Shown piece after piece: positions 23,226-23,637 of a stretch of 23,637 bases of DNA. The position numbers were made by a program, and so were the translations under genes. The notes below the pieces were generated by a model. That model saw only the letters and a list, made by a program, of their open reading frames with translations, was not told the DNA's origin and did no database searches. Numbering within the stretch: the first letter of the stretch is position 1; each line of letters starts with the position of its first letter. Source of the stretch: a virus; the UHGV virus genome UHGV-1381150; one strand, given 5' to 3'.

Positions 23226-23637
23226 TGAACCGCCCCGGGTTTCCTGGAGAGTGTTTTATCTGTGAACTCAGGCTGCCAGATCATCGTTTCCGATGGAAGC
23301 ATAATAAGCTTTTTCTGCTTCTGCCGGAGGAGTATGGCCCAGCCTTTCCAGCAATCGTCGATTGTTATACCAGTCCACCCACGTGAGTGTGGCCAGTTCC
23401 ACTTCTGCACGGTTTTTCCAGCTCTTACGGTGTATTACCTCCGCTTTGTAAAGACCATTGATGCTCTCCGCCATCGCGTTGTCATACGAGTCGCCTGTAC
23501 TTCCTGTTGATGCCAGTAATCCGGCTTCCTTAAGCCGCTGTGTGTAGGCCAGCGATACATACTGAGAACCTTTATCACTGTGATGGACCGTGCCGGACGG
23601 TCGACGGGCCCATAACGCCTGCTCCAGTGCATCCAGC
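23226..23637 (-). mobile_element. Partial IS3-family insertion sequence (IS629-like); terminal inverted repeat starts TGAACCGCCCCGGGTTTCCTGGAGAG at 23226; element continues beyond the window
   Basis: IS3-type terminal sequence beginning TGAAC directly downstream of the transposase stop; transposase C-terminus with DDE-region residues. Confidence 0.8.
23268..23636 (-). CDS. IS3-family transposase (OrfB, integrase-core domain), C-terminal 122 aa; N-terminus outside the window
   Basis: In-frame translation from the window edge: LDALEQALWARRPSGTVHHSDKGSQYVSLAYTQRLKEAGLLASTGSTGDSYDNAMAESINGLYKAEVIHRKSWKNRAEVELATLTWVDWYNNRRLLERLGHTPPAEAEKAYYASIGNDDLAA; HSDKGSQY and DSYDNAMAES are typical rve-domain D and E regions. 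Confidence 0.85.
   Translation of the reverse strand: MDALEQALWARRPSGTVHHSDKGSQYVSLAYTQRLKEAGLLASTGSTGDSYDNAMAESINGLYKAEVIHRKSWKNRAEVELATLTWVDWYNNRRLLERLGHTPPAEAEKAYYASIGNDDLAA

Follow-up and report, generated by a model that had tools for sequence, protein, structure and literature searches.

An IS629 element of the Shigella-plasmid type probably interrupts a Rha-family regulatory gene of a lambdoid prophage

Introduction

The DNA considered here (the window, 23,637 nucleotides in all, from the virus genome UHGV-1381150) ends on its right in what looks like part of an insertion sequence (IS), only a few bases away from the ATG of a 78-aa open reading frame (ORF). Which element is this, what did it enter, and is the 78-aa frame a phage gene in its own right or a piece of a larger one? 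The first-pass annotation saw an IS629-like element of the IS3 family at the edge of the early region, next to a small phage gene, suspected that it had truncated an early or regulatory gene, and linked it, together with a PerC-like gene, to enterohemorrhagic Escherichia coli (EHEC) O157. The reading that accounts best for the data is that an IS629 element of the type found on Shigella plasmids transposed into the Ash-pRha Rha-family regulatory gene of a lambdoid prophage, and we put its probability at about 90%.

[quoted passage not shown] The prototype of IS629, which belongs to the IS3 group of this family, was described from Shigella sonnei (Matsutani and Ohtsubo, 1990, cited in PMC3271280), and its target duplication is 3-4 bp long (PMC3271280).

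Identity of the insertion element

Positions 23226-23637 (412 bp, minus strand) are the right-hand end of an IS629 element of the IS3 family, cut by the end of the window. The terminal repeat reads TGAACCGCCCCGGG..., with its first base at 23226, and the right-hand inverted repeat (IRR, TGAACCGCCCCGGGTTTCCTGGAGA, 23226-23250), read directly, starts with TG, as is typical for the IS3 family. The string TGAACCGCCCCGGGTTTCCTGGAGAG, which starts at 23226, is the sole exact copy of the terminus in the window, where 0.17 matches would be expected even if two mismatches were allowed, and no second IS629 terminus was found within the window. In blastn comparisons, identity to IS copies likewise starts at 23226. 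A longer element was considered as well, since many of the IS matches began 10-16 bp outside the TGAACC tip, and was rejected: the flank of one such copy (the partial copy L003) is a chance resemblance (ttaaagg).

The last 122 codons and the stop of the orfB/OrfAB transposase lie at 23268-23636 on the minus strand, that is, in the same direction as the phage early operon. From 23636 to 23268 this frame contains no stops; its translation runs LDALEQALWARRPSGTVHHSDKGSQY...AEKAYYASIGNDDLAA, with the C-terminus ...HTPPAEAEKAYYASIGNDDLAA. Besides the translation, the assignment is supported by profile matches. The 122-aa fragment aligns to positions 262-369 of 369 of the NCBIfam profile transpos_IS3 (E = 1.3e-36), with a score of 126.6 bits, which does not reach the full-length cutoff of 160, as the fragment amounts to only a third of the protein; Pfam rve, rve_2, and rve_3 also match it, all above their gathering thresholds. 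The DD(35)E motif can be judged on its C-terminal part, the first D being outside the window: the second D (HHSDKGSQY) and the E (AMAESINGLYK) are present and, counted on the translation, stand 35 residues apart. Both the transposase C-terminus and the IS3-type terminus beginning at 23226 are thus where the first-pass annotation had placed them, and the assignment to the IS3 family and the IS629 group holds.

IS629-type copies that match the 412 bp at 95-100% identity number in the thousands, far beyond chance. They are identical in 412/412 positions to a partial copy on plasmid NZ_CP060062, annotated as IS629-family, and, in PLSDB, 100% identical to the "IS629 ORF2" copies of pCP301 from S. 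flexneri 2a 301 (AF386526 / NC_004851); copies on plasmids of S. sonnei, S. boydii, and S. dysenteriae and on many E. coli plasmids are equally 100% identical. By the ISfinder convention, isoforms of one element share at least 95% nucleotide identity with reference copies, and the window copy lies above that level with respect to the pCP301 copies, the name IS629 resting here on deposited and annotated copies. The pCP301-type element and the window agree in all 412 bp, in the TGAACCGCCCCGGG terminus, and in the transposase C-terminus, and differ only in that the right-hand third of the element is all that is visible in the window.

Other copies are more distant. The complete 1310-bp element of E. 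coli SW070919 (L001) is 99.76% identical over the 412 bp, the IS629-type copy of the O121:H19 strain 16-9255 (L002) 94.4%, and the IS629, or IS1203(v), of pO157 Sakai (L006, 30694-32003) 94.9%. The pO157 copy has the 1310-bp architecture of the full-length relative and the same terminal 14 bp as the window, but differs from it by 21 mismatches in 412 bp and represents another isoform; over the full 1310 bp, it is 95.9% identical to the SW070919 element. Such distances are those between the sub-types of IS629, which differ by 4-5% and have been described as IS1203-like, Shigella-IS629-like, and O26-copy-like (Rump et al., PMC3271280). Since the window copy is 100% identical to the Shigella-plasmid copies and 94.9% identical to that of pO157, it is, by identity, the Shigella-type isoform and not an O157 marker.

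Comparison with IS629-type copies, in line with the proposed check, gave the expected match, though not to the O157 type, and the link to EHEC O157 was not borne out. The matches at 99-100% identity include avian pathogenic (APEC), uropathogenic (UPEC), commensal, swine, and wastewater E. coli isolates as well as Shigella plasmids. Among complete genomes, 4233 of the 5426 of E. coli contain a match to a junction query that includes the IS. The closest IS-free prophages reside in non-EHEC strains (442/2, UTI89), the best relatives of the window as a whole are non-O157 strains, and the PerC-like gene, offered as further support, is of the PerC/yfdN kind that is routine in this type of prophage. 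Nothing points to an O157 provenance.

How much of the element is present beyond the window can be approached through its relatives. The complete element in SW070919 has a TG...CA inverted repeat, the ends of which, TGAACCGCCCCGGGTTTCCTGGAGA and TGAACCGCCCCGGGAATCCTGGAGA, match at 23/25 positions, and it carries orfA and orfB, an annotated programmed frameshift, an AL1L pseudoknot, and a 3-bp direct repeat; PGAP annotates the programmed frameshift and the pseudoknot in the 16-9255 copy too. The window ends 412 bp into the element, so what is seen could instead belong to a dead IS629 remnant, a solo right end, and such remnants exist: L003, whose right end is identical, is down to 664 bp, and its annotation notes a missing N-terminus. 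We regard a dead remnant as improbable here, given that the 412 bp show no substitutions relative to intact copies, that the frame is open to the window edge, and that the nearest relative of full length (1310 bp) is intact. The interruption of the gene described below stands whether the element is complete or partial.

The interrupted gene

The 78-aa ORF (22975-23211, minus strand) begins with an ATG at 23211, and 14 bases separate this ATG from the IS tip. In the first-pass annotation, it figured as a neighboring phage gene, a reading under which the IS would lie in an intergenic or regulatory region just upstream. In its favor are the ATG itself, the open frame of 78 codons, and a 78-aa product called on one 1.6-kb Logan contig, the only such product on record. 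That contig begins 1 base before the ATG, and the call is therefore an artefact of the contig end. The bases upstream of the ATG, CCTTTAACCAG, contain no Shine-Dalgarno-like sequence, and the frame runs on through the junction into the IS without a stop. In every IS-free relative, moreover, the same frame runs 305 codons further upstream and is annotated as a single coding sequence. A free-standing gene of 78 codons has, in our estimate, almost no chance of being correct, and the alignment to intact homologues refutes it.

According to this alignment, the ORF is the 3' remnant of a Rha-family gene. In the IS-free prophages of E. coli 442/2 and UTI89, the gene is an uninterrupted coding sequence of 1152 bp and 383 aa, annotated in both 442/2 (L004, 5216-6367) and UTI89 (L005) as "Rha family phage regulatory protein"; it is likewise uninterrupted in the phages mEp460, 1720a-02, and PhiR63_1 and in several Stx2 phages. 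Phage records label the intact gene Rha, antirepressor, or transcriptional regulator, and functional phages carry it intact. Up to the junction, the flank (22760-23225) matches E. coli 442/2 at 100% identity, and megablast with this flank against complete E. coli genomes gave 568 records that cover most of it, with 442/2 and 0-4 at 100%. The remnant (22975-23228, minus strand) comprises codons 301-383, i.e., 83 codons, and the 78-aa ORF is the part of it from the internal codon Met306 onward. The comparison with IS-free prophages suggested in the first-pass annotation has thus identified the interrupted gene as rha, and the suspected truncation of an early or regulatory gene is confirmed: the ORF, asked whether it is full length relative to its homologues, covers only 78-83 of 383 residues.

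The domain structure of the intact protein shows what has been separated. Pfam Phage_ASH matches residues 117-213 (7e-16), Phage_pRha residues 223-308 (E = 1.4e-30), and TIGR02681 residues 214-312, so that a break at residue 301 lies inside the pRha domain: it clips the last residues of pRha, of which about eight are left in the window, and detaches the C-terminal tail of 75 residues. The 83-aa remnant gives no Pfam match, which means that a complete Phage_pRha domain (PF09669 / TIGR02681) is not present. PHROG 821 ("transcriptional regulator") covers residues 61-383 of the intact protein, and the remnant aligns to it at 242-324 of 324 only; an independent gene fits poorly with an alignment confined to the last quarter of this family. 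The intact homologue shares the full pRha domain with Rha-family proteins such as those encoded by rha in phi80 and P22 and has an Ash domain before it, whereas the window retains only the end of pRha and the uncharacterized tail. The Rha family is thus represented in the window by a pseudogene fragment and not by a functional member. The rha genes of phi80 and P22 are reportedly non-essential and inhibit phage growth in IHF-defective hosts (Henthorn and Friedman, 1995).

The intact "Rha family" protein is itself a fusion of Ash and pRha, and its unannotated 75-residue tail forms a PHROG of its own (17716). Its N-terminal residues, about 100 of them, look like low-complexity sequence and have no Pfam match. 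An over-extended annotation of 383 aa, considered because of the odd N-terminal 200 residues, was ruled out by the Phage_ASH match at 117-213 and by the coverage of PHROG 821.

The junction and the far side of the element

In IS-free relatives, the target reads ...aaaggcattgatgtatgcc..., in a longer form ...ctggttaaaggcattgatgtatgcctc..., and the window reads ...ctggttaaaggcatTGAACCGCC... across the junction. The right end of the IS abuts gene nucleotide 901, in codon Asn301. Bases 23226-23228 (TGA) are common to the IS tip and to the uninterrupted target, and phage homology reaches 23228, which leaves an ambiguity of 3 nt in the junction when it is read from the phage side. Under the proposed transposition into rha, the 3' part of the gene would have been orphaned at nucleotide 901, and its internal ATG would have given rise to the apparent 78-aa ORF.

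The IS tip TGAACC is flanked by the triplet CAT (23223-23225), which we predict to be the target-site duplication because duplications of 3 bp are seen in SW070919 and 16-9255. A simple insertion, with the 5' part of rha just beyond the IS, is somewhat favored over other arrangements of the far side. It predicts that the left inverted repeat would end ...CCAGGATTCCCGGGGCGGTTCA before CAT, that the left junction would read ...GGTTCA-CAT-TGATGTATGCC..., and that the sequence past the IS would continue as ...GGCGGTTCA + CAT + TGATGTATGCCTCTTTGAACTGG..., into the 5' part of rha and ymfL. The junction seen in the window, searched as an exact 51-mer and 34-mer, is absent from GTDB representatives, JGI metagenomes, and IMG/VR, and, searched by megablast, from 5426 complete E. 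coli genomes and INPHARED phages; a search of GTDB representatives and JGI metagenomes for the predicted left junction, allowing a gap of flexible length, gave no match.

It is possible, if less probable, that the IS entered rha and the locus was subsequently rearranged, by recombination with another IS629 or by an adjacent deletion or inversion, so that something other than the 5' part of rha follows the IS; in that case, the prophage would have lost its immunity and integration end, or that end would lie elsewhere. Secondary rearrangement at IS629 is common: of 47 IS629 sites in O157 genomes, only 21 still have direct repeats that match (PMC3271280). Where a genome has any match to the junction query, the number of matching places has a median of 3 and reaches 50, and almost all of these places are IS copies, which provide ample substrate for recombination. 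The prophage also shows decay elsewhere (the frameshift in rusA described below), and the collections searched contain no second genome with this junction to argue otherwise. On the other side, the window bears no sign of a rearrangement, and the insertions in SW070919 and 16-9255 are simple, with perfect 3-bp duplications and both halves of the gene present.

Operon context and possible consequences of the insertion

On the minus strand of IS-free relatives, the early-right operon has the order cro-like HTH gene, ymfL, Ash-Rha gene, 74-aa ORF, HTH_36/DnaD_N replication gene, PerC/yfdN, followed by an N6-adenine methylase gene (absent in the window), a LexA-like gene, rusA, KilA-N, DUF968, and Q. 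The Ash-Rha gene is therefore situated mid-operon, between ymfL and the replication genes, and the element, placed at the edge of the early region in the first-pass annotation, is rather at the edge of the window.

The gene downstream of rha is a conserved phage ORF of 74 aa (22754-22978, minus strand), which matches PHROG 1153 over its full length (E = 1.3e-45). Its start overlaps the rha stop by 4 nt (ATGA), an arrangement annotated in 442/2 and UTI89 as well, and it is in turn overlapped by 4 nt by the replication-initiator-like gene (21939-22757, minus strand; Pfam HTH_36, 1.8e-11, and DnaD_N, 3.6e-05). Transposition of IS629 into rha would thus have several consequences. It would inactivate the Rha-family protein; it would place a co-oriented element of 1.3 kb in the early-right operon, upstream of replication, Q, and the late genes; and it would remove the translational coupling of rha to the 74-aa ORF and the replication gene, perhaps with a polar effect on both. 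The replication-initiator-like gene would be the first essential function exposed to such polarity, and the loss of rha translation together with 1.3 kb of foreign DNA could lower the expression of replication and later genes. A consensus scan of both strands at 22500-23637 found no sigma-70-like promoter; the same scan gave two terminator-like matches, both on the plus strand and not above the level of shuffled sequence, so that the scan speaks neither for nor against polarity.

The disruption of a non-structural regulatory gene of a prophage by IS629 is a well-understood event, an instance of ordinary prophage decay, and adds to the cases in E. coli or Shigella in which an IS drives such decay. 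Along with the frameshift in rusA, the insertion would mark a prophage that is accumulating lesions. Since it lies upstream of the replication and Q genes, replication or induction of the prophage may be reduced. For annotation, the 78-aa ORF is best described as the 3' piece of a Rha-family pseudogene disrupted by an IS, and the element as IS629, Shigella-type isoform, from which EHEC O157 provenance should not be concluded.

Other IS629-type insertions in the same gene

Two complete genomes carry comparable insertions. In E. coli SW070919 (NZ_CM129861), the same gene contains a copy of the same isoform, inserted 144 bp closer to the 3' end and with the duplication ATT, and in O121:H19 16-9255 (NZ_CP022407), a copy of a different isoform lies 130 bp nearer the 3' end, with the duplication AAC. 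PGAP annotates the gene in both as two pseudogene halves around an IS3-family transposase. These loci resemble the window in the type of prophage, in the Rha-family gene, and in the orientation of the IS, but differ from it in the insertion point. The different insertion points, and the different isoform in the O121 strain, indicate independent events, and these show that the gene tolerates such hits.

All three insertions fall in the 3' quarter of the gene and in the same orientation, which might be taken for a hot spot of IS629 or for selection to disable an antirepressor or regulator; if the latter were true, the disabled regulator would lock the prophage into lysogeny. We consider both quite unlikely. 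The common orientation is an artefact, since the search joins pieces only on one strand, and a rough count reveals no excess over chance: two insertions were observed among complete genomes, and the neutral expectation is about one (26466 IS-containing places x 1152 bp / 5 Mb x 18% of genomes with the gene). Nothing specific was found in the literature on IS629 and the antirepressor.

Other features of the prophage

The rusA gene (20735-21125, minus strand) is frameshifted by a 1-bp insertion near 20924 (CCGGAAGG versus CCGG-AGG in 442/2), which leaves two ORFs, of 69 and 85 aa, in place of the 129-aa RusA. Two further contigs, one from Logan (SRR25011209) and one from a human-gut ENA assembly, carry an identical 69-aa product; the lesion is therefore common to a prophage lineage, and looking up the 69-aa fragment leads to related prophages without the IS.

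At 21445-21448, the window lacks a phage N6-adenine methyltransferase gene of 654 bp that is present between PerC/yfdN and the LexA-like gene in L001, L002, L004, and L005; another contig, L008, lacks it as well. No exact record was found for the 272-aa replication protein. Its HTH_36/DnaD_N gene contains, at 22388-22492, a direct repeat of about 39 nt in three copies (GTGAATCTCCTGCACTACCCCCTGGTGCAACTCCTGCAC and variants), which resemble the iterons of a replication origin lying within the gene for its initiator (cf. lambda O).

As for the remainder of the phage sequence (1-23225), complete E. coli genomes cover at most 81% of the window, at 97.6-98.9% identity, and the best matches all stop at 22014. 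Such partial coverage, with a common stop at 22014, indicates a mosaic prophage, with a combination of parts that does not occur in the complete-genome set.

Stx phages use the position downstream of Q for cargo. In the window, Q (18550-18918) is followed downstream by a cargo or defence-like island at 13964-18470, which comprises genes for a C5-cytosine methylase (17430-18470, minus strand), a HEPN protein (16772-17461, plus strand), a GmrSD_N/DUF262 protein (15609-16769, plus strand), and an N6/N4 methylase (13964-15016, minus strand).
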